A stretch of DNA of 64,000 bases, taken from a virus (lineage: Duplodnaviria; Caudoviricetes). Position numbers and translations under genes: made by a program. Under the pieces are notes generated by a model. That model was not told the DNA's origin. It made no database searches and saw nothing but the letters and a program-made list of their open reading frames with translations. Shown here piece by piece: positions 14,700-56,088 of the stretch. The stretch covers positions 1 through 64,000 of IMG/VR virus record IMGVR_UViG_3300028887_000090; one strand, 5' to 3'. The number at the start of each line of letters is the position of its first letter. Position 1 is the first letter of the stretch.

Positions 14700-15404
14700 A
14701 TGCAGAAAGAATCACCGATTTTAGAACAGCAGCGTCCTGACCGTCAGTATTACTCCCGTCAGAACCGTATTAAGCGCGAACTCGACCATGCCGTAACCTT
14801 GCTGAAGGCCGCGTTTGCCTCGTGGGTCATCCTTACCATCGTCTGTGCCTTCATCGGCTGTGCCGGTAAACAGGTGGTCGTCGATCAGACCGAGAGCCAC
14901 CATAGCAAGGCTGACTCTCTATCCGCGTCGTTACAGGTTGCCGTCAGTCAGCAGCAGACCCGTATCGACTCCCTTTTCCATCTGGTACTCCAACAGGAAC
15001 TAAGCCATCAGACGGCTAACGAACAGCAGACCGAGCAGATTCAGGAAACCGTCACGTCGTGGATCGACTCGCTGGGTCGTAAGGTGACGCAGGAGGCCCG
15101 TACCATCAACCGTAAGACCGACCGCCAGGAGGAACTTCGTCAGCAGCGTATCATTCAGGAACAGGAGCAGCGCATTCTGACATGCCAGGAGCGTATCGAT
15201 TCGCTCTATGCACTGTTGCTGGAAAAGACCGCCAAAGAGGAAAGCGACACCACCTCGTACCACAAAGAGGTAATCCGTCCGGCTCATACGCCATCGCTCT
15301 ACCAGAGCTTCCATGACTGGCTCACATCGCTCATCAATGTGGTAGTCCTCGCCGTCATCGTCGGCTTCGTTGTGCGCTGGAAGAAAAAGAAGTGGAACTT
15401 ATAG
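14700..15404 (+). CDS. putative lipoprotein with C-terminal TM helix (unimolecular spanin-like)
   Basis: hydrophobic stretch ending FIGC, coiled-coil middle, C-terminal TM followed by KKKK. Confidence 0.55.
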   Translation: MQKESPILEQQRPDRQYYSRQNRIKRELDHAVTLLKAAFASWVILTIVCAFIGCAGKQVVVDQTESHHSKADSLSASLQVAVSQQQTRIDSLFHLVLQQELSHQTANEQQTEQIQETVTSWIDSLGRKVTQEARTINRKTDRQEELRQQRIIQEQEQRILTCQERIDSLYALLLEKTAKEESDTTSYHKEVIRPAHTPSLYQSFHDWLTSLINVVVLAVIVGFVVRWKKKKWNL

Positions 15405-16397
15405 GCCGAAGTCCTGAAGGTACTGTCGGCATCTGAATCCCTTTCGTGGTTCAAACTCCTCAAACGAATGGGCGACGAAGTGCGCCTTTTTGTTCACCCA
15501 TCCCGCCAGATCTTTCTGCCATTGCGGAATGATGTGGCGGGGATTGTTTGGGTCACGGTAGGGCTGGGCATGTGGATAGACGTAACGGCCTTCGTGTGCA
15601 GCCCGTGTCTCTTGTGTACGGTGCCACCAGTGTACGATGCGCTCGTAGCATTCCCTGAAGTCTGAGGTGAGCATAGTATAAAGGAAATACTGACCCGTGA
15701 AACCGTATTTGTTTATCATTTCCATCGCCCGCTCACATTCTTCTATCTGGGCGTGGGTGTCACAACCGAAACGGATGCGGTTGTTATCGAGCCACTTCAC
15801 CTTGGCCAGCAGCTGTGCTATCTCATCCGTTACCAGTCGTGCATCGAGTGCCTGATTGAAGTCCACACGGTAGCCTCGTTCGATGATCTTGCGTAGCTGC
15901 TGCAAGCAGTAGTCGCCAGCAGCCAGGATATTGTTATCCATCAGCACCAGTTTACGACGGCCTTCAATGGCTATTTCGTCCACATCCATGTATGGGCGTA
16001 TCAGTCCCTCTTTCTTTGGTACCACACACCAACGGCATTTGTTGGGACAGCCGCGAGTCAGAAAACCGTAGGCCGTATCTTTCGGTACGTTTGGATAGAT
16101 GTCGTAGAGTGGTTGCAGCCGGTCTATCTCATCGGGTAGGGTAGAGTGTATGTCGTAGCCGGTGCCTCCCTTGATGATTTTGTCGGCCTGATAGATAAAG
16201 GTATCGTCGGGTGTAAAGTTGAACACCTTCGACATGTAGATAATATCATAGTGTTTCATGGGTGTGGCCCACTCGATTTGCCCCCCCCTATTATGCCAGT
16301 ATCTCGCAATCTTTCCGAGTGCGAGGTTAGGGTAAATCGTGGCTCCCCATTTCTTCTTTTTGGCGTGTCCGTCCACGTCCACAAGTCCTATTTGCAT
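15399..16397 (-). CDS. radical SAM protein with in-frame G8 tract
   Basis: TRGCPNKCRWC; C8 on + strand at 16281-16288. Confidence 0.9.
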   Translation of the reverse strand: MQIGLVDVDGHAKKKKWGATIYPNLALGKIARYWHNRGGQIEWATPMKHYDIIYMSKVFNFTPDDTFIYQADKIIKGGTGYDIHSTLPDEIDRLQPLYDIYPNVPKDTAYGFLTRGCPNKCRWCVVPKKEGLIRPYMDVDEIAIEGRRKLVLMDNNILAAGDYCLQQLRKIIERGYRVDFNQALDARLVTDEIAQLLAKVKWLDNNRIRFGCDTHAQIEECERAMEMINKYGFTGQYFLYTMLTSDFRECYERIVHWWHRTQETRAAHEGRYVYPHAQPYRDPNNPRHIIPQWQKDLAGWVNKKAHFVAHSFEEFEPRKGFRCRQYLQDFGL

Positions 16398-17433: not shown

Positions 17434-18031
17434 TCAGTTAAACCATTTAATAACTGTGTCCCCTTTGTAACCTTTTTCCCAGACAAACCAGGCGTAGGCG
17501 ACAGCGGAGCCTTTAACGTTGGCGAAGTCACCATTGGGAGCACAGAGCAGACGTGAGCTGCTGACCCATACTCGTGCCGGTGGCTGTGTCTGGAAGAGGT
17601 GTTTGCGGGCCTTACCTTCGAGGAAGGTGAGTTTGAGGAACATCGCCACCTTGTGACCAGTGGGGATAATGGCCAAGGCTTTCTCCACAAACGCCTGAGC
17701 AAAGGCGTAGGGTGGGTTTGTGATGATATCGCCCGACCATTCCACGTTGTCGATAGCCAGAAAGTCTGCCACTTCGCCATAGCCGCGATCGATGATATCC
17801 CTGGAAATGACGGAATACCCCCCCCCTCGTAAGTACTTCGGCAATATGCCCTTCACCACATGCCGGTTCGAGTATCGGCCCATCGAAGTGCTCCAGCTTC
17901 AGTAGCCACTCCGTAGCCTTCGGCTCTGTGGCATAGTAATCCTGTGCCACTCGATCACCATCGGCATGGTTGCTGGCACTGATGCCTTTGAATACGGAGG
18001 CGCTGCCTCCAGTCCAATCTTTATTCTTCAT
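17434..18031 (-). pseudogene. NPPY-type DNA amino-methyltransferase frameshifted at a G9 tract (intact with G8)
   Basis: DYYAT, ILEPACGEGH in one frame and DIITNPPY in another; junction is C9 at 17818-17826. Confidence 0.85.
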
Positions 18032-20105: not shown

Positions 20106-20600
20106 TTATTCGTATAGTCTTGGGTCAACTTCTAATTTCTTCAGGAGAATTTTTGTAGTCTCTATCAGATCCTTATTATCGCCAAAGATACGCTCCCATG
20201 CAGGATTGGGTTTATAGCGTGGAATGCGCATTAGTTGTAATGGCTCCCATTCCGGAATGAAACGCAGTTGGCGAAGCATCGCTTTCAGGTGACGTGGACG
20301 GTCGATGATAAAGAGCTGTTCGTGCTGAAAGCCTCCCTTATAAACCACCGTGACGTGTAGAGCAATATCGTAGCCATGAGTGACGTACCAGAGCATCTTC
20401 TTACGCTCCTTGCACTGCTTCGCCTTCAGGCGTTTCGTCTCTTCGACTAATGCTGATATGTCGATGTTGCCATAGGCCGTGATGCAGACGCGCTGCACTT
20501 TCGGCTGTGGTTCCTCCGGTGGGATGTGCGTAGTCAGGCAGCCTTCGCATTCGCCTACCTTTGCTCCTGTCTCTTTATTATATATAGTAATGTGGCTCAT
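20106..20600 (-). CDS. hypothetical protein
   Basis: ORF 20106..20621; ATG at 20600. Confidence 0.65.
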   Translation of the reverse strand: MSHITIYNKETGAKVGECEGCLTTHIPPEEPQPKVQRVCITAYGNIDISALVEETKRLKAKQCKERKKMLWYVTHGYDIALHVTVVYKGGFQHEQLFIIDRPRHLKAMLRQLRFIPEWEPLQLMRIPRYKPNPAWERIFGDNKDLIETTKILLKKLEVDPRLYE

Positions 20601-20601
20601 A

Positions 20602-21389
20602 TTAATAAATATCGAAATCAAATGTCAGTTGTCGGCTTGCTTCTTTTATCCGGTTTTGGGCGTAGTCGAACCAATAAGGGTCGCGCTCTATACCGATGTA
20701 TTTGCGATGCTCGATGATAGCAGCTACGCAGGTGGTGCCTGATCCCATCGTATTGTCGAGAATTACCCCCCCATATTGCTATATGAGCGAATGAGATAGC
20801 GCATTAGATCCACGGGCTTTTGTGTGGGATGCTTCTGGCCCTCGCTGCAATGGATGGCTGGGATGGTGATAATGCTACGTGGGTGCTTCTTATCGGTATA
20901 GGTGGGATTGATGCGCTTCATGTTGCCATAACACTGGTTGGTCTCTACCTCGGTGGCATGACCTTGCGAGTGGTTTGGCTCGCGCCCATTCAATGCCTCC
21001 ATCTGAGGATGGTACACCGGCAGCTGCTTATAGAACACACAGATATCCTCGTGGTAGCGCAATGGCATGCGGTTGGCATTCAGGAATCCCGTAGCACGGC
21101 ATTTGTCCCATACCAGGTTATAGCGCCATAGCTTCTGATTGCTCATCATCAGTTGGGCCGTAAACATACCAGAGGCAAAGAGTACGATGGCACCGTGTGG
21201 TTTGATGATACGCTCGTAATGCGTCCACAGCGGAGCAAAGGGAATTACCACGTCCCATTGAGCGTGTTTATTTCCTTTGTTCAATACGCCGTAAGGCAGA
21301 TCGCAGATAATGGCATCGATGCTCTTATCAGCTATCCCGTCCATCACCTCCAGACAGTCGCCCTGGTATATGTTGTTTGGCTCAATCAT
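20602..21389 (-). pseudogene. beta-class N4/N6 DNA methyltransferase frameshifted at a G7 tract (intact with G8)
   Basis: GDCLE, DLPY, HPTQKP, then stop; adding one G at C7 20766-20772 continues VILDNTMGSGTTCVAA...YIGIERD to stop at 20602. Confidence 0.9.
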
Positions 21390-21393
21390 TGAT

Positions 21394-21957
21394 TTATGAT
21401 TTAATGATTTCATCAATGGGTTTGTCGCTCTTTACGCCGACGATGATCTCAGCAATACATCGCCTTTTGCCTTCATCGTCTGTAATATGTTTGGTGGATA
21501 TGATTTCGGTGTCGATGATATCCATTAACAAATTATACTTAGCGGTATGTTCGATGTCTTTATATCTTCGTGACCGTTCCTCGTTACTACACTCTATTAC
21601 AAAGTCTCTCTCGTATTTGATAAAACCAGTAATTGTTTCCATTCTAACGGAGGCTGTGCGTATTTTTAATTCTCTGTTATCTCTGAATGGATCGTTGATG
21701 TCGGCCAACTGTTCCGTCAGTTTTGCATTCTGTTCTACCAGCACTTTGCCACCCTCCAGGAGAGATTCGTTTTCGCGCTTCATCTTATTATAGAGGTGAC
21801 GGAAAACGACGTTGCTCACGATGATAAGAAGGTAGAGCAAATCGATAATGGCATGAAACATATCGCCACGAATGAAAAACGCTACCGTAAAGAATGCGAG
21901 TCCACCAAACAGCAGTATGTTGATGGCCCAACTAAGTATATTGCTAAGTTTCTTCAT
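21394..21957 (-). CDS. membrane protein
   Basis: two N-terminal hydrophobic helices. Confidence 0.7.
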   Translation of the reverse strand: MKKLSNILSWAINILLFGGLAFFTVAFFIRGDMFHAIIDLLYLLIIVSNVVFRHLYNKMKRENESLLEGGKVLVEQNAKLTEQLADINDPFRDNRELKIRTASVRMETITGFIKYERDFVIECSNEERSRRYKDIEHTAKYNLLMDIIDTEIISTKHITDDEGKRRCIAEIIVGVKSDKPIDEIIKS

Positions 21958-24041: not shown

Positions 24042-24407
24042 TCAATCTTCAATTCCTAATACATCGTGGTAGAAGTCGAGGGCCTTGCGGGTAGCGATGG
24101 ATGCCTTATGCTGATCCTCGCGTCGCTGTCGCTCAATCTCAAAGAGGCGTTTACGCTCGCGCTTTTCCTTGATGCCCTCCCGTCGGGCTTGCTCCTGCAT
24201 ATAGATGGTGTTACGCAGTTCGTTGTTGTCGAGTGCTTCGGCTATCATGCGGGTATTCGTCTGCATCAGTGGGCGTACAATCTCATCGATGACCCAGCCA
24301 GGCTTTTCGAGCAATGCCGCTTTCAGATCTTCGGCTGGGAAACGGATGACGTGCTTACCATCGTCATCCATTCCCACCACGTCGTTAATCTTCAGATGTA
24401 GTTCCAT
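24042..24407 (-). CDS. hypothetical protein
   Basis: ORF 24042..24434; ATG at 24407. Confidence 0.65.
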   Translation of the reverse strand: MELHLKINDVVGMDDDGKHVIRFPAEDLKAALLEKPGWVIDEIVRPLMQTNTRMIAEALDNNELRNTIYMQEQARREGIKEKRERKRLFEIERQRREDQHKASIATRKALDFYHDVLGIED

Positions 24408-24906
24408 TGGGGTTATCGGCTGTGCGAACGACACTCTGATTGGGTAGTCCTAAGCTCAGGAAACCATTTTTATCGCGTATGGCTTTGCAGACGGCAATCT
24501 CTGCATTCTCATATTCGAGTTGAGCCTGAGCACGCTTGCGCATACGTTCTGTTGCACTCTGAGCCAGTTTAGCCTCGTAGTCCTCACGCTTGCACGAAAA
24601 CTGATATTTCAGTTCGGTCATCTTTGTGCGGATGTCGGCCATTTCTATTCTGGCTGCCGGTTCACCCTGTTTGGGTTTCAGTTCATCAAACTGTCGGCGA
24701 AGTTCGTCGAGCTGCATATCAAAATGGTGGCGCTCGATGTGGTACTCTCTACGGAGTTTCGCCTGGGTGTTGTCTGATTCTTCATTCGTGCGGTGGAAAA
24801 TGTTGTCGCGCACCTCACGGCACTTTTGACGGAGAGCAAATAGCTCATCTACCGTCATACCCTCCAAGTCATTTAGGGGGGGGTAATTTACGTTTTCTTG
24901 TTTCAT
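24385..24906 (-). CDS. coiled-coil protein with C8 tract near its 5' end
   Basis: 173-aa ORF; G8 on + strand at 24876-24883. Confidence 0.7.
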   Translation of the reverse strand: MKQENVNYPPLNDLEGMTVDELFALRQKCREVRDNIFHRTNEESDNTQAKLRREYHIERHHFDMQLDELRRQFDELKPKQGEPAARIEMADIRTKMTELKYQFSCKREDYEAKLAQSATERMRKRAQAQLEYENAEIAVCKAIRDKNGFLSLGLPNQSVVRTADNPNGTTSED

Positions 24907-36591: not shown

Positions 36592-36909
36592 ATGAGGAAA
36601 GAATACTATTGCTTCTACCAGATGGGGCATACCTTCTACTACATCTTTGACGATGGTACGGTACGCTCGACACGTAACGTACTGTCGCCCATCGATACGT
36701 GGAAGGTCATCGCCACCTATAACGGCAAGGGCTATCGTCGCATTCGCATTCAGGGTAAGACGTTCAAGGTGCATCGTCTCGTGGCCACGGCATTTATTCC
36801 AAACCCCGATAATCTGCCTTACGTCCTACATAAGGATGGCAACCGCGAGAACAATGATTTTAGAAATCTCGAATGGAGCGCCGTACAGTCAAATCACAAA
36901 GACCAGTAA
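36592..36909 (+). CDS. HNH endonuclease
   Basis: VHRLVATAFIPNP...VLHKDGNRENNDFRNLEW. Confidence 0.9.
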   Translation: MRKEYYCFYQMGHTFYYIFDDGTVRSTRNVLSPIDTWKVIATYNGKGYRRIRIQGKTFKVHRLVATAFIPNPDNLPYVLHKDGNRENNDFRNLEWSAVQSNHKDQ

Positions 36910-37039
36910 TATTGGGCCGTTATTCCGACTCGCAGAATGGCATTGTGGTATCTCCTGATGGTATCGCATTGTGTTTGGCAGGGGGGGTAATGGCCATGAT
37001 ACGGACAAACCAAAGGTATTGATAGAATATGAACTCTAA
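36873..37039 (+). pseudogene. TRD-like cassette A, out of frame (G7; G8 restores)
   Basis: MERR...SQNGIVVSPDGIALCLAG|GGNGHDTDKPKVLIEYEL*; tract 36981-36987. Confidence 0.8.
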
Positions 37040-37349
37040 TCGTATATTGCAGCGACACAACAGATGCGGAGGATTATGCCATAACTCTCCGCGTCTGCAT
37101 GCTGTGATAGTCCGTTGCTGTGTCTATCTGGGTGATTGTGGCGGTTGGTGGAACTCGATACATCCCTCCCGTCTGGGTATGATGATACTGAGGGTGATGA
37201 GCATCGATCCTTATGATATCTATAATAAGGTATATGATGGCTACACCACTCATAGCCGTTCGTATATCCGTGCTGATATCCGTTTCCGTTTGTCGTTGCT
37301 CCAGCAGCTGCTATTCCTTTTGTTGGTCATTCTCTTGCTATGCCTATGA
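37029..37349 (+). CDS. atypical ORF inside the cassette array (no G tract, no IEY tail)
   Basis: starts in the tail of cassette A; stop overlaps ATG of cassette B. Confidence 0.4.
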   Translation: MNSNRILQRHNRCGGLCHNSPRLHAVIVRCCVYLGDCGGWWNSIHPSRLGMMILRVMSIDPYDIYNKVYDGYTTHSRSYIRADIRFRLSLLQQLLFLLLVILLLCL

Positions 37350-37489
37350 AGGGTGAGGTGGTGATGGTGCTCGGATCGTTGCAGAACCATGCAGCGATAG
37401 TGGATGTACGAGGGGGGGGCAAAGCGTGTCCCTGCATCGGTACTACAGACTTTGGACTACCTAAAATAATCGTAGAATATGAATTGTAA
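37346..37489 (+). CDS. TRD-like cassette B, in frame (G8)
   Basis: MKGEVVMVLGSLQNHAAIVDVRGGGKACPCIGTTDFGLPKIIVEYEL*; tract 37412-37419. Confidence 0.8.
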   Translation: MKGEVVMVLGSLQNHAAIVDVRGGGKACPCIGTTDFGLPKIIVEYEL

Positions 37490-37630
37490 TGGTATAATAC
37501 GGGTAGGAAACCTATATTACGACTCGTTTCGTAATGGTTTCGATGGCAATGTTCAGGGCATTTCCGGCATTGCCCAGACCGTGTTAGCCGCAAATGGGGG
37601 GGGTATATCTTGATAGAGTATGAGATTTAA
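37479..37630 (+). pseudogene. TRD-like cassette C, out of frame (G8; G9 restores)
   Basis: MNCNGIIRVGNLYYDSFRNGFDGNVQGISGIAQTVLAANGGG|YILIEYEI*; tract 37596-37603. Confidence 0.8.
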
Positions 37631-37807
37631 GACGACTAATGTGGGCGTTACAAAGCCGATTAGGGGGGGCAAATCCGACCTGTCAATGTTACGCAAGATC
37701 TTTGCGCTGCCACTCTCACTACCCGCTACGATGCTGTTGGGCCTACTAATATTATCACTTTGGCCCATTACCCGATGACAGTTGTATTGATAGAGCATGA
37801 TTTGTAA
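37620..37807 (+). pseudogene. TRD-like cassette D, out of frame (G7; G8 restores)
   Basis: MRFK...IRGG|QIRPVNVTQDLCAATLTTRYDAVGPTNIITLAHYPMTVVLIEHDL*; tract 37663-37669. Confidence 0.8.
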
Positions 37808-37979
37808 GGCTATTGGTTGGACGCGAAGCGGTTCCGGACGTGGTGATGTCATCAGTTACCATCTGAAGGATATCTGCAACTGCATTACTTCCTTTGTAGG
37901 GGGGGGTATTGGCAAGGATTCAGTAACAGGCATGTATAACACAACTCCGTATATTTTGATTGAGTATGAACTATTATAA
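37797..37979 (+). CDS. TRD-like cassette E, in frame (G8)
   Basis: MICKAIGWTR...KDICNCITSFVGGG...NTTPYILIEYELL*; tract 37899-37906. Confidence 0.8.
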   Translation: MICKAIGWTRSGSGRGDVISYHLKDICNCITSFVGGGIGKDSVTGMYNTTPYILIEYELL

Positions 37980-38156
37980 TTCGCGTCTGTGCGAAATGAT
38001 TAGGGGGGGCAATGGCGACCACAATATCATGGCGAAATGCTTGACACCTATAACCAGAACGCCCATCGTAAGGTAGCGATAACCGTTTTGGCTGGCATCA
38101 GTTCGCGAAACCACTATTTTGTTTGTGAAGAAAGAACCAATAAATTCAGAAAGTAT
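37966..38156 (+). pseudogene. TRD-like cassette F, out of frame (G7); with G8 it reads in frame into the MTase
   Basis: MNYYNSRLCEMIRGG|QWRPQYHGEMLDTYNQNAHRKVAITVLAGISSRNHYFVCEE; tract 38003-38009. Confidence 0.75.
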
Positions 38157-39698
38157 ATGATCGCAAAGATTTATCCCGACGGACACCCTGATCTTCAGGG
38201 TAAAAAGGATCCGAAGCATCCCGTGCGATACTTCGACATCCGAAAACTTACCCCCCCCGAATGCTATACACTCATGGGGGTACCGCAGCAGCGCATAGCG
38301 CAGCTGATGGCAACCGAAAAACGCCCATATACGGCATTTATCGGTGTAGAGGAGGAACTAAGGCTCTTTGGTCTGGAAGAGTCAGCCTCGATGAAAGATG
38401 TGCTGGATGCCTACAAGGAGGCGATGCAGAGTTGTGATGAGTTTGACCAGGAAACACAGAAGAAAATCGATGAAGGTTTTCTCAGTCCTGACAGCAGACC
38501 CACAACCGATGAAGATGGTGAGGAAATCATCTATCCCTACGACGATGAAGAGAGCTACCAACGTTACCTGGAGCAGTTGAAGGAGGATTTGGAAGGTAAC
38601 AAACTGGTACGTCAGAATTACGATGAAAGATACGCAAAGATCCGTGCCGCACCTACTGAGGAACGTTTTGGCGATGTGCAGATAATCTCAAATAGTTCGC
38701 ACTATAAACTCGCAGGAAACTCGATTGTCTGCGATGTGCTGATGTATATCTATGAAGAATTTCTCTATCCCACCGGTCGCCGTATTCCTACCGAGCAGCA
38801 GGATTTATTCGCGCTGCCGCAATTCCGTTTAGAGCGCGACTGGAAGAAGAAACCATTGAAACTTGTTACGCTATGCTCTGGCTATGACTCGCAGGCCATT
38901 GCCTTCGACATGCTGAAAGAGCGTTATCCTGATTTTGATTACGAGCTGACGGCATGGGCTGAGTTTGACCCTGAGAGCAAGCGCCCATTGGAAGAGCAAC
39001 CCGCAGTGGTGGCCCATAATCTGCTATTCCCTCAGTGGGCCGACCGTAATCGTGGTGATATGACCAAGTGTGATTGGAGTGACCTGAAGGATGCAGAGGT
39101 GGATTTTCTTACTTACTCTACGCCGTGTCAGTCGATCTCACAGGCAGGTAAGCGTGAGGGCATTAAGAAGGGATCTGAAACCCGTTCGGCTGTGCTCTGG
39201 TACACCGAGGAAGCCGTGAAGGTGATGAAACCGAAGATCCTGATGCAGGAGAATGTGCGTGCGCTGATAAACAGCGTGAACATGCCCGACTTCAAGGAGT
39301 GGTGTCAGCTGCTGGAGAAATATGGTTACGTGAACTTCCTTGCGCCCTCATTCCCGACATTGTGGGGAGAGACCAAACGCGACAAAAAAACCATTCCTGG
39401 CATTCTCAATTCGAAGCACTATGGCGTGCCTCAGAACCGCGAGCGCGTCTATATGATTTCTATCCGTCAGGATGTGTTGGGTGATACGCAGTATGAGTTC
39501 CCGCGTCCTTTCCCCCTGGATAAGTGTATTGCCGACATTCTGGAGTCAGATGTCGATGAGCGTTTCTTCCTGAAGCCCGACTCAGTGATTAAGTTCCTGA
39601 CTGTGAATGAGAGTGACCAGAAGGCTCAGATCTTCTATGTAGTGACTGACCATAAGTTGACGGATGAAGAAATCGCCCAGGCTCGTAGTCGTAAGTAG
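38157..39698 (+). CDS. circularly permuted DNA (cytosine-5)-methyltransferase
   Basis: order IX (IRKLTPPECYTLMG), X (YKLAGNSIV), I (TLCSGYDS), IV (STPCQSISQAG), VI (MQENV), VIII (GVPQNRERVY); ORF open from 38037, probable ATG 38157. Confidence 0.92.
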   Translation: MIAKIYPDGHPDLQGKKDPKHPVRYFDIRKLTPPECYTLMGVPQQRIAQLMATEKRPYTAFIGVEEELRLFGLEESASMKDVLDAYKEAMQSCDEFDQETQKKIDEGFLSPDSRPTTDEDGEEIIYPYDDEESYQRYLEQLKEDLEGNKLVRQNYDERYAKIRAAPTEERFGDVQIISNSSHYKLAGNSIVCDVLMYIYEEFLYPTGRRIPTEQQDLFALPQFRLERDWKKKPLKLVTLCSGYDSQAIAFDMLKERYPDFDYELTAWAEFDPESKRPLEEQPAVVAHNLLFPQWADRNRGDMTKCDWSDLKDAEVDFLTYSTPCQSISQAGKREGIKKGSETRSAVLWYTEEAVKVMKPKILMQENVRALINSVNMPDFKEWCQLLEKYGYVNFLAPSFPTLWGETKRDKKTIPGILNSKHYGVPQNRERVYMISIRQDVLGDTQYEFPRPFPLDKCIADILESDVDERFFLKPDSVIKFLTVNESDQKAQIFYVVTDHKLTDEEIAQARSRK

Positions 39699-39880
39699 TG
39701 CCGTGTTGCGGGGTGTTCGTACTGAGCATGCCCGTGCCGTGCGCCGCATTTACGGAGATAGGGGGGGGGCATTGCCACTTCTCTGACCGTAATTTTCTTC
39801 CGGCTACTGATGGGTGTAGTAATACGATAACTGGAATATTGAAGGATAATTTGTTATTGATTGAGTATGATGATCATTAA
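39664..39880 (+). pseudogene. TRD-like cassette G, out of frame (G9; G8 restores)
   Basis: MKKSPR...VRTEHARAVRRIYGDRGG|HCHFSDRNFLPATDGCSNTITGILKDNLLLIEYDDH*; tract 39761-39769. Confidence 0.8.
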
Positions 39881-40049
39881 AGAGACTGAGCCAACTGCCG
39901 ATATGAAGCCTGTTCGAATATCGGCAAGCCGTGGTAGGGGGGGGCAAAACGCTACCCACCAAGTCATCGAATTAGGGTCATGGCAAGCAACGAACACAAT
40001 TACCTCAGTACAGAAGGATAATATTGTATGGATAGAGCGAGATTTATAA
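39867..40049 (+). CDS. TRD-like cassette H, in frame (G8)
   Basis: ...SASRGRGGQNATHQVIELG...TNTITSVQKDNIVWIERDL*; tract 39937-39944. Confidence 0.8.
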   Translation: MMIIKETEPTADMKPVRISASRGRGGQNATHQVIELGSWQATNTITSVQKDNIVWIERDL

Positions 40050-40177
40050 GGAATGTGGGGGGGGTATATTCGCAATGTACTCCCGACTTCAACCGAGGTT
40101 GGCTTTGGGGCCTCTCTCGATGTATCAAAGCCTCGATGAATGATGCCGCAATATTGATAGAGTATGACTATGAATAG
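40028..40177 (+). CDS. TRD-like cassette I, in frame (G8)
   Basis: MDRARFIRNVGGVYSQCTPDFNRGWLWGLSRCIKASMNDAAILIEYDYE*; tract 40057-40064. Confidence 0.8.
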   Translation: MDRARFIRNVGGVYSQCTPDFNRGWLWGLSRCIKASMNDAAILIEYDYE

Positions 40178-40327
40178 GAAATATAAGATAGGTGTTCATA
40201 TCGTAGGCCATCGTTTAGAGTGGCACGGCGAGGGGGGGCAGACTCGACTATGTGGAAAGATATCTGTCCTTGCATTCGCATGAATGATTATAAATGTCCG
40301 ATGAATATATTGATTGAGTATGAGTAA
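40164..40327 (+). pseudogene. TRD-like cassette J, out of frame (G7; G8 restores)
   Basis: MTMNRKYKIGVHIVGHRLEWHGEGG|ADSTMWKDICPCIRMNDYKCPMNILIEYE*; tract 40232-40238. Confidence 0.8.
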
Positions 40328-40574
40328 GGTACGCCATTTCAAACCTCGGTGTCCCTTCCTTCAGATTGCTACGAGGGGGGGGCAAATCGTGTTACAAGTT
40401 CGTCAGGCAACCGAGCAAGGCTATATCGAATGCGTCAGTGGTGGCGTGTTCGATATGGCTTACCCTACGTCTCAGCTTCGTCGCGCCCGTGTCAAAGACG
40501 ATGGCCGTGTGGCATCGGCATTGATGGCAGGAGAAACCTCACAATGTGTATTTCTGGAGTATGACCTCGATTAA
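40320..40574 (+). CDS. TRD-like cassette K, in frame (G8)
   Basis: ...TRGGQIVLQVRQATEQGYIECVSGGVFDMAYPTSQLRRARV...VFLEYDLD*; tract 40375-40382. Confidence 0.85.
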   Translation: MSKVRHFKPRCPFLQIATRGGQIVLQVRQATEQGYIECVSGGVFDMAYPTSQLRRARVKDDGRVASALMAGETSQCVFLEYDLD

Positions 40575-40761
40575 ACTATCCAAGACTACCTCCGCACCTC
40601 CAAGGGCTTATGGGGGGGGGTATTTGTTGCCTGTCAACACCGCAGCAGGAGGAATCTGTTGCACACTCAATACCAGATACGACGGCATGCAGTTGCCGGA
40701 GGACATCTTATCACTCGCACACTATCCTAAGACGGTTGTGCTCATCGAATACAATCTATAA
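40561..40761 (+). CDS. TRD-like cassette L, in frame (G9)
   Basis: ...YGGGYLLPVNTAAGGICCTLNTRYDG...LAHYPKTVVLIEYNL*; tract 40612-40620. Confidence 0.8.
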   Translation: MTSIKLSKTTSAPPRAYGGGYLLPVNTAAGGICCTLNTRYDGMQLPEDILSLAHYPKTVVLIEYNL

Positions 40762-55848: not shown

Positions 55849-56088
55849 ATAGGTCTAATGTTGGAGTGAAACAGGGGGGGGGTAAAATCGCCCTTCAGAG
55901 GAAACGGTCTGAGTCGTACCGCCATGTTGTTTAAGATAGCGACGCTGGCAGGTCATAAACTGACTATTCCAGAAATGAATAAGTTTAAAGAGGTGAATCC
56001 TCGTAGTCTTGAACAAGTATATAATGAAGTGGTTCGCGTAGGCGATGCCGGTAATGCCCGATTCGCTTTGCAACTGATATTAAAATAA
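55845..56088 (+). pseudogene. hypothetical gene of about 80 aa, frameshifted at G9 (intact with G8)
   Basis: ATG overlaps upstream stop; removing one G at 55874-55882 opens the frame to TAA at 56088, 4 nt before the next ATG. Confidence 0.7.

Follow-up and report, generated by a model that had tools for sequence, protein, structure and literature searches.

In the first 64 kb of a 101.9-kb phage record in IMG/VR (IMGVR_UViG_3300028887_000090; these 64,000 nucleotides are referred to here as the window), positions 37966-39698 hold a gene for a permuted cytosine-5 (C5) methyltransferase that is switched by a poly-G tract and whose core carries no target recognition domain (TRD), and we think it probable that this core is given its specificity by TRD proteins encoded in the cassettes that flank it. 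Among relatives (loci with L numbers and database proteins with P numbers), three states of the gene are found: a switchable TRD cassette directly ahead of the core, called cassette F, which occurs both ON and OFF; a permanent, tract-less fusion of a TRD to the core; and a core that stands alone. Features are on the plus strand unless marked otherwise.

The core is one open reading frame (ORF) of 513 residues (38157-39698), recognized by Pfam, alignment to PDB sequences, AlphaFold modeling, and Foldseek and VIA searches, and its motifs follow the order IX (38226-38285), X (38694-38753), I (38862-38906), IV (Pro-Cys-Gln, PCQ; 39105-39152), VI (Glu-Asn-Val, ENV; 39237-39266), and VIII (Gln-x-Arg-x-Arg; 39423-39461). 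The catalytic motifs (IV, VI, and VIII) and the cofactor motifs (I and X) are all within it and are nearly invariant among relatives. An earlier note on this DNA had proposed that motifs IX and X come before I, IV, VI, and VIII, and this was borne out by phmmer searches against PDB, in which residues 334-517 of the longest open frame (553 residues, from ATG 38037) align with M.HhaI 53-213 and residues 218-238 align with M.HhaI 294-314, which is motif X. Motif X therefore lies ahead of motif I and the permuted order is real. The Pfam family PF00145 (E=1.4e-38, 133.6 bits, cut-off 22) covers only residues 333-519, the half that holds motifs I to VIII. An AlphaFold model of the same 553-residue frame, made with a 29-sequence alignment and having a mean predicted local distance difference test (pLDDT) score of 83.9, matches C5 methyltransferases in Foldseek and VIA (M.HhaI, Z 18.4, root mean square deviation 2.1, 190 aligned residues; M.MpeI, Z 18.0).

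The superposition on M.HhaI ends at residue 196-207, that is, it takes in the large domain up to the hinge and stops before the TRD. Only about 75 residues follow motif VIII and about 25 precede motif IX, and no TRD-equivalent segment was seen in 38157-39698 when the model was compared with M.HhaI. Three parts of the core lie outside the catalytic fold: the first 25 residues (38157-38231), some 125 residues inserted between motifs IX and X (38298-38672), and a conserved C-terminal strand plus helix of about 30 residues (39630-39695). Judged from the model, neither the insertion nor the two termini resemble a TRD, and the proposal that the core from ATG 38157 lacks one has survived a search for a TRD within its own limits. 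The variable insertion is predicted to form a long helical hairpin (helices at residues 119-145 and 171-204 of the 553-residue model), is the least conserved part of the protein (identity of 0.22 to relatives), and is absent from P0001, P0004, P0006, P0023, and L023. The N-terminal 25 residues are the best-conserved part (identity of 0.83 to 12 relatives, versus 0.63-0.77 for the catalytic regions; nonsynonymous divergence [pN] of 0.03-0.08) and are a candidate for a common docking element for TRDs, a role that would fit this conservation.

The conservation of the N-terminal 25 residues and of the C-terminal strand and helix could also mean that the core is self-sufficient, a relaxed or short-motif methyltransferase that uses these elements, while the cassettes modulate it or are unrelated to it; some eukaryotic C5 enzymes do have very small TRDs. 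We regard this as quite unlikely, since the model contains no segment equivalent to a TRD, the cassettes are, by their sequence, true TRD homologues, and loci devoid of cassettes carry a fused TRD.

Cassette F is the element that would either fill or vacate the missing position. Frame analysis gives 12 codons from ATG 37966 and the start of an Arg-Gly-Gly (37966-38002) that is encoded with a G7 tract (38003-38009; relatives have G7 or G8 at the homologous tract), and in the G7 state the F frame then ends at a TAG (38074-38076). The remainder of F (38010-38156) is in the frame of the core and has no stop, and this frame is uninterrupted between 38010 and the core stop (39696-39698); G8 (or G5 or G11) therefore fuses F to the core. 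F also lacks the tail plus stop typical of free cassettes and has a short linker to the core Met instead, and direct inspection of the frames upheld the suggestion that G8 would make F an N-terminal TRD just ahead of motif IX. ATG 38037 (38037-38039), the first ATG of the longest open frame, is in the core frame and is a possible start for a partial F-core fusion; this Met is conserved only within the close F clade.

The toggling between a fused and a free-slot enzyme that the earlier note expected of F is reflected in natural variants. F is OFF in the window, L005, L006, and L008 and ON in L007, where the core is broken by a C10 run, and in P0097 and P0023, which are in-frame F-core fusions from other assemblies. 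In L008, G8 is the OFF length and G7 would be ON, the context there being different by one base. An F-homologous N-terminal region is fused to the core without any tract in P0004, P0006, and L028. The order in which the TRD precedes motif IX, known as Type H, is thus present in L007 (up to the C10 break), P0097, P0023, P0004, P0006, and L028, while in the window it holds with G8 only, the assembled G7 detaching F.

The pre-tract peptide of F is kept in L005, L007, and L008 (pN of 0.0-0.19 versus synonymous divergence [pS] of 0.46-1.0) and the post-tract part is kept in four loci (pN of 0.04-0.17 versus pS of 0.53-0.95), yet the two halves are mutually out of frame in four of five loci, which is the pattern expected of a phase-variable gene and not of a pseudogene. 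In the other cassettes, too, the sequences before and after the tract have a pN much lower than pS; by these values, F and the other cassettes are under purifying selection in both halves. That F acts as a cis/OFF switch is well supported.

The tract in F belongs to a larger set. GGGGGGG has 35 overlapping matches in the window against 5.3 expected, and the G/C runs fall into two length classes, 5 or shorter and 7-9, with no run of 6 between them, a pattern that A/T runs do not show. In seven long ORFs, GGG is the rarest glycine codon (12 of 318), and not one of the 22 Gly-Gly pairs there is encoded by GGGGGG. L005 and L006, which are 96.6% identical, have unequal lengths at 8 of 14 tracts, and L004 and L089, which are 95% identical, at 6 of 7. 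Together, the bimodal runs, the rarity of the GGG codon, and the variability of the tracts indicate that the runs are selected features and unstable on a short evolutionary scale. As in contingency loci, the length of a homopolymer within the ORF sets the reading frame and varies among close relatives whose flanking sequences are conserved. A C8 tract inside motif IX (38251-38258), in frame in the window, appears to be a second switch acting on the whole enzyme; it is C9 and out of frame in L006 and C7 in L089, L008 has no tract there, and the C10 run of L007 lies at a nearby site.

All of these sequences come from metagenome assemblies or metagenome-assembled genomes (MAGs), and many cassettes are out of frame, as might be the case if homopolymer sequencing errors or the degeneration of a multispecific methyltransferase gene had given rise to apparent frameshifts and mini-ORFs. 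We consider an artefact or decay of this kind highly improbable: the long ORFs of the window are intact and its A/T runs are unaffected, the G/C runs are bimodal and draw on the rarest Gly codon, the same arrangement is seen again in dozens of assemblies independent of one another and in the genome of a cultured Prevotella, and both cassette halves are under purifying selection. Homopolymer sequencing error in particular was rejected on the intact long ORFs, the bimodal runs, the recurrence, and the purifying selection.

Classification of 68 tracts in seven loci by a script, with a few corrections by hand, found 25 in frame, 34 one G short, and 6 one G long, with 3 unassigned. That 34 of the 40 out-of-frame tracts need exactly one more G, and that type A cassettes have an out-of-frame G7 in four of six loci (and G6, out of frame too, in L006), would also be in line with the tracts being expression attenuators, with slippage of RNA polymerase or of the ribosome on G7-G8 giving a low level of F-core fusion and of cassettes at any DNA length. 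We think this unlikely, because close relatives differ in whether a given tract (of length 6-10) is in frame, as expected of contingency at the DNA level, and because the excess of G7 is also explained by a length distribution skewed to 7-8. Attenuation and a heritable switch are not mutually exclusive.

In addition to the switchable forms, core-only loci (L003/L004, L012, L014, L016, L018, L020, L025, L026, L089-L092, and L094) represent at least nine further lineages in which a stop lies 2-18 codons ahead of the core Met and no TRD is fused. Their start is the conserved methionine of MIAKIY, and several database proteins begin exactly there. The free-slot enzyme put forward in the earlier note is, as far as these sequences tell, a natural state of the core. 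A different TRD, from the family of the window's fifth cassette, is permanently fused in L019 and L021-L024. The internal core Met is kept in the F-like and type-5 fused forms examined (P0027 does not keep it), which is compatible with internal initiation, and the 30 nucleotides upstream of the core Met are A-rich, a weak hint, given a Bacteroidales host.

Cassette tails were counted across 27 loci on both strands. In nearly every core-only locus, the coding strand has 1-10 tails and the opposite strand 0-2; L093 departs from this, with six G tracts and not a single cassette tail. L028 is the only locus without cassettes or tracts, and it has a fused TRD. This co-occurrence of cassettes with core-only enzymes is the strongest indirect argument that the core may depend on free cassettes. 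In L012 (4830-5003) and L016 (4800-5003), the cassette directly upstream shares the frame of the core and is separated from it by one stop and four codons.

The window has two arrays of free TRD cassettes, five upstream of F (36873-37979, each with a G7-G8 tract) and six downstream (39664-40761, each with a G7-G9 tract). Most cassettes end in a hydrophobic triplet followed by Glu-Tyr-Asp/Glu, with tail variants in a few, and the ATG of the next cassette is embedded in the +1 frame in the Tyr-Asp/Glu codons of the preceding tail. At a typical junction, the other two frames have stops beside this ATG and the cassette frame itself stops one to three codons later. The first downstream cassette begins at ATG 39664, formed in the +1 frame by conserved Asp-Glu-Glu codons in the C-terminal strand-plus-helix of the core, and this overlap is kept in L005, L007, and L008. 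In L008 (5470-5605) and L017, which is the same there, the G of the core's TAG stop is at the same time the first in the G7 tract of the cassette that follows, and the remainder of that cassette is in the core frame, where stop read-through would yield a C-terminal TRD fusion.

Homology supports the reading of the cassettes as TRDs. The cassette at 40320-40574 has 44% identity over 57 residues to a canonical Staphylococcus phage C5 methyltransferase (tblastn against a phage collection, E 1e-5), and the aligned region, residues 246-300 of the Staphylococcus phage enzyme, lies between motifs VIII and IX. The tail of the cassette falls on the strand that ends the TRD unit of that enzyme; the free cassettes end in the counterpart of the hydrophobic-hydrophobic-hydrophobic-Glu strand found ahead of motif IX in canonical enzymes. 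The same tblastn approach with the cassette at 39867-40046 gave no match among the phages. The alignment to the Staphylococcus phage enzyme indicates that the cassettes are true TRD homologues. It also refines the notion that the chain is broken in the variable region: the break is exactly at the boundary between TRD and motif IX, the cassette tails being the strand before motif IX and the core starting about 25 residues ahead of it.

The arrays could be a recombination reservoir in which only fused TRDs work and the free cassettes, which would not act as proteins in trans, give rise to new fusions when shared junction or tract sequences undergo deletion or gene conversion. The fused cassette does vary with the lineage (F in the window, type 5 in L019 and L021-L024), cassette order varies among relatives, and tract contexts are common to several cassettes (for example, 87% over 23 nucleotides between the fourth cassette and F). 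A silent library, though, would not need an ATG for each cassette within the previous tail, junction stops in three frames, or an ON/OFF tract, nor would it need the intact mini-ORFs of tract-less arrays, and many lineages keep arrays without any fused TRD at all. For these reasons, we regard a reservoir as unlikely, and a purely silent cassette library was rejected on the cassettes' own ATGs, the junction stops, the tracts, and the intact tract-less arrays. In L023 and L024, one fused TRD is accompanied by five consecutive, intact, overlapping mini-ORFs of 46-77 residues that have no homopolymers, which suggests that stand-alone TRD genes are a stable design to which the G tracts add a further layer. 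A polyprotein made by a +1 frameshift at each junction was also considered and rejected, as there is no slippery or stop-stimulated site and at least five events would be needed.

The second cassette of the window differs in having a 5' part of about 300 nucleotides that is frame-broken (37029-37340), with only its last 49 codons (37340-37489) forming an intact ORF; its equivalent in L005 is a compact cassette of 68 residues. A search for inverted repeats around this 5' part (36900-37500) found none.

Our results lead us to propose the following mechanism. With G8, F and the core would be made as one chain in the Type H order, TRD-IX-X-I...VIII, giving a single-chain enzyme with the specificity of F. 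With G7, F would end at 38074 and the core would be started internally, most likely at the conserved Met 38157 (or at 38037). While F is OFF, free TRD proteins of about 45-85 residues whose own tracts are ON would dock in the vacant position of the core, the last conserved strand of the cassette pairing with the first strands of the core at the place where TRD and motif IX are usually linked covalently, and the C8 run in motif IX would add a further switch for the whole enzyme. The likely purpose would be bet-hedging of phage DNA methylation against host restriction on the one hand and methyl-dependent restriction on the other. We infer the action of TRD peptides in trans as the best reading of the sequences. 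To the fuller version, in which specificity comes from free peptides of about 50 residues in trans, F toggles between a covalent and a free slot, and eleven modules and the core are each switched, we give slightly less than an even chance.

Several observations weigh against this proposal. F is called a TRD from its position, a Thr-Val/Leu motif, its terminal strand, and its fused homologues, and neither sequence nor profile searches relate this putative TRD significantly to other TRDs: tblastn with F plus motif IX (38010-38300) gave no match among phages, and profile-profile comparison of F with the fourth/twelfth cassette family returned a probability of 0.1, which leaves the likeness seen by eye without statistical support. 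The F part of the AlphaFold model is of low confidence (pLDDT 32-55). An isolated F-like small domain from L028 (4662-5111) was modeled with a mean pLDDT of 63, and a fold search with it in VIA retrieved only generic curved sheets (Z of 4.5 or less); with so poor a model and such generic matches, this comparison is unusable either way. Tract lengths are those of metagenome consensus assemblies, and the excess of out-of-frame cassettes that are one G short over those one G long, which could mean correction by transcriptional or ribosomal slippage, may stem from a length distribution centred on 7-8 or from rescue by slippage in transcription or translation. Finally, we found no precedent for a TRD-only peptide acting in trans.

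A related locus offers a possible origin for the permuted gene. L049 (4989-8100) has a split in canonical order, with a gene for motifs I-VIII ending in G9, several poly-G cassettes, and a gene that joins the last TRD to motifs IX-X. The X-to-I linker of the window core resembles the end of a IX-X chain joined to the start of a I-VIII chain of this type, and the permuted core may have arisen by head-to-tail fusion of such neighbouring halves. Such a fusion would explain why there are TRD arrays on both sides and why F, the last upstream cassette, is joined to motif IX.

Our findings place the window system in the C5 methyltransferase family, and it lacks the defining feature of each of the known systems that it recalls, namely the multispecific SPR-type enzymes, the two-chain enzymes, and the phasevarions. 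M.SPRI, M.Phi3TI, and their relatives are multispecific Bacillus phage enzymes known from the Trautner laboratory. As in the window, these are phage enzymes in which many TRD units of about 40-60 residues serve one core, with protection against many host restriction systems as the presumed role. Their TRDs all occupy the stretch between motifs VIII and IX of one polypeptide, whereas in the window they form separate ORFs that are translationally coupled; every cassette is closed by a stop, stops are present in all frames at the junctions, there is a homopolymer switch for each cassette, and the core is permuted. Arrays of several TRDs in one chain are described for Bacillus phage C5 enzymes (PMC12707154).

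The precedents to which the earlier note had appealed, permuted and two-polypeptide C5 methyltransferases, are both in the literature (PMC5944983; PMC3404938). All natural permuted C5 methyltransferases have their permutation within the variable region, and most are of Type H (PMC5944983). In the Type H permutants M.BssHII, M.Alw26I, M2.Eco31I, M.Esp3I, and M2.BsaI (PMC5944983), as in the window, motifs IX and X precede I-VIII and the break is in the variable region, and the window enzyme with F in frame shares the TRD-IX-X-I...VIII order. In contrast to these permutants, the TRD of the window is joined via a slippery G tract and is currently detached, many relatives have no fused TRD at all, and arrays of free TRD genes lie on either side of the core. 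M.AquI and M.EcoHK31I are natural two-polypeptide C5 methyltransferases (PMC3404938) in which activity comes from separately translated chains split in or near the variable region, an assembly in trans like that proposed here. These enzymes divide the motifs over two fixed chains, while in the window a single chain holds all motifs, and what is encoded apart from it is the specificity module alone, of which there are a dozen alternative copies; L049 is the related canonical-order split of the M.AquI/M.EcoHK31I kind. With phasevarions, the window shares the switching of methylation ON and OFF by homopolymer slippage and, as in Type I systems, specificity on a separate subunit. Phasevarions are bacterial, concern N6-adenine, and have one or two switches, whereas the window system belongs to a phage, concerns C5, and combines about 13 independent tracts in a single locus. 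The searchable literature yielded no description of TRD genes that are free or switched by poly-G.

If the core does take its specificity from free TRD peptides, it would be the first C5 methyltransferase whose specificity subunits can be exchanged, a cytosine counterpart of the Type I HsdS principle and a compact natural toolkit for retargeting cytosine methylation. Moreover, with F, eleven modules, and the core as switches, one phage lineage could generate thousands of methylation states, and phages, not only bacteria, would diversify their epigenome by multi-locus homopolymer phase variation, the likely aim being a balance between being protected from classical restriction and being exposed to the methyl-dependent kind. 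Of the whole system, the F switch lends itself best to testing, because one base makes the difference between a conventional fused enzyme and a core with no TRD.

Relatives of the locus come from rumen and gut viral contigs, Prevotellaceae MAGs, and one contig of the cultured Prevotella sp. MGM1, and the host of the phage is therefore probably a Prevotella-like member of the Bacteroidales. The MGM1 locus (L092; NZ_BEWV01000204.1, 51333-60460) encodes a core-only enzyme, 55% identical, with flanking cassettes that have G6-G11 tracts, and its presence in a cultured strain makes it a possible experimental model with which experiments would be feasible. A blastn search of the whole locus against the phage collection gave no match. 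Near the locus, Pfam identifies a DUF5906-type replication protein, which we read as a primase/helicase, a sliding clamp, and an HNH endonuclease, with a tape-measure protein downstream.

The long G/C runs of the window are nearly all in or near DNA-modification genes. On the minus strand, an N6_N4 DNA methylase gene (PF01555, E 8e-14; 20106-21416) is split by a coding-strand G7 at 20766-20772, after which the conserved motifs resume in another frame, and the gene appears to be phase-OFF in the assembly. A second amino-methyltransferase-like gene with an Asn-Pro-Pro-Tyr motif (17434-18031, minus strand) is split by a G9 at 17818-17826, which sits between the cofactor-binding and catalytic parts and is out of frame as assembled. 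Other runs are a G8 (16281-16288) that is in frame close to where a weak radical-SAM-like ORF begins (15399-16397, minus strand), a C8 (24876-24883) in frame in a small ORF (24385-24906, minus strand), and a G9 (55874-55882) in a region of short ORFs. The HNH endonuclease gene abuts or sits within the cassette array in the window (36592-36909), L018 (4003-4284), and L092 (3006-3236); its start in L018 uses a cassette-type junction, and in the window its end overlaps the ATG of the first cassette.

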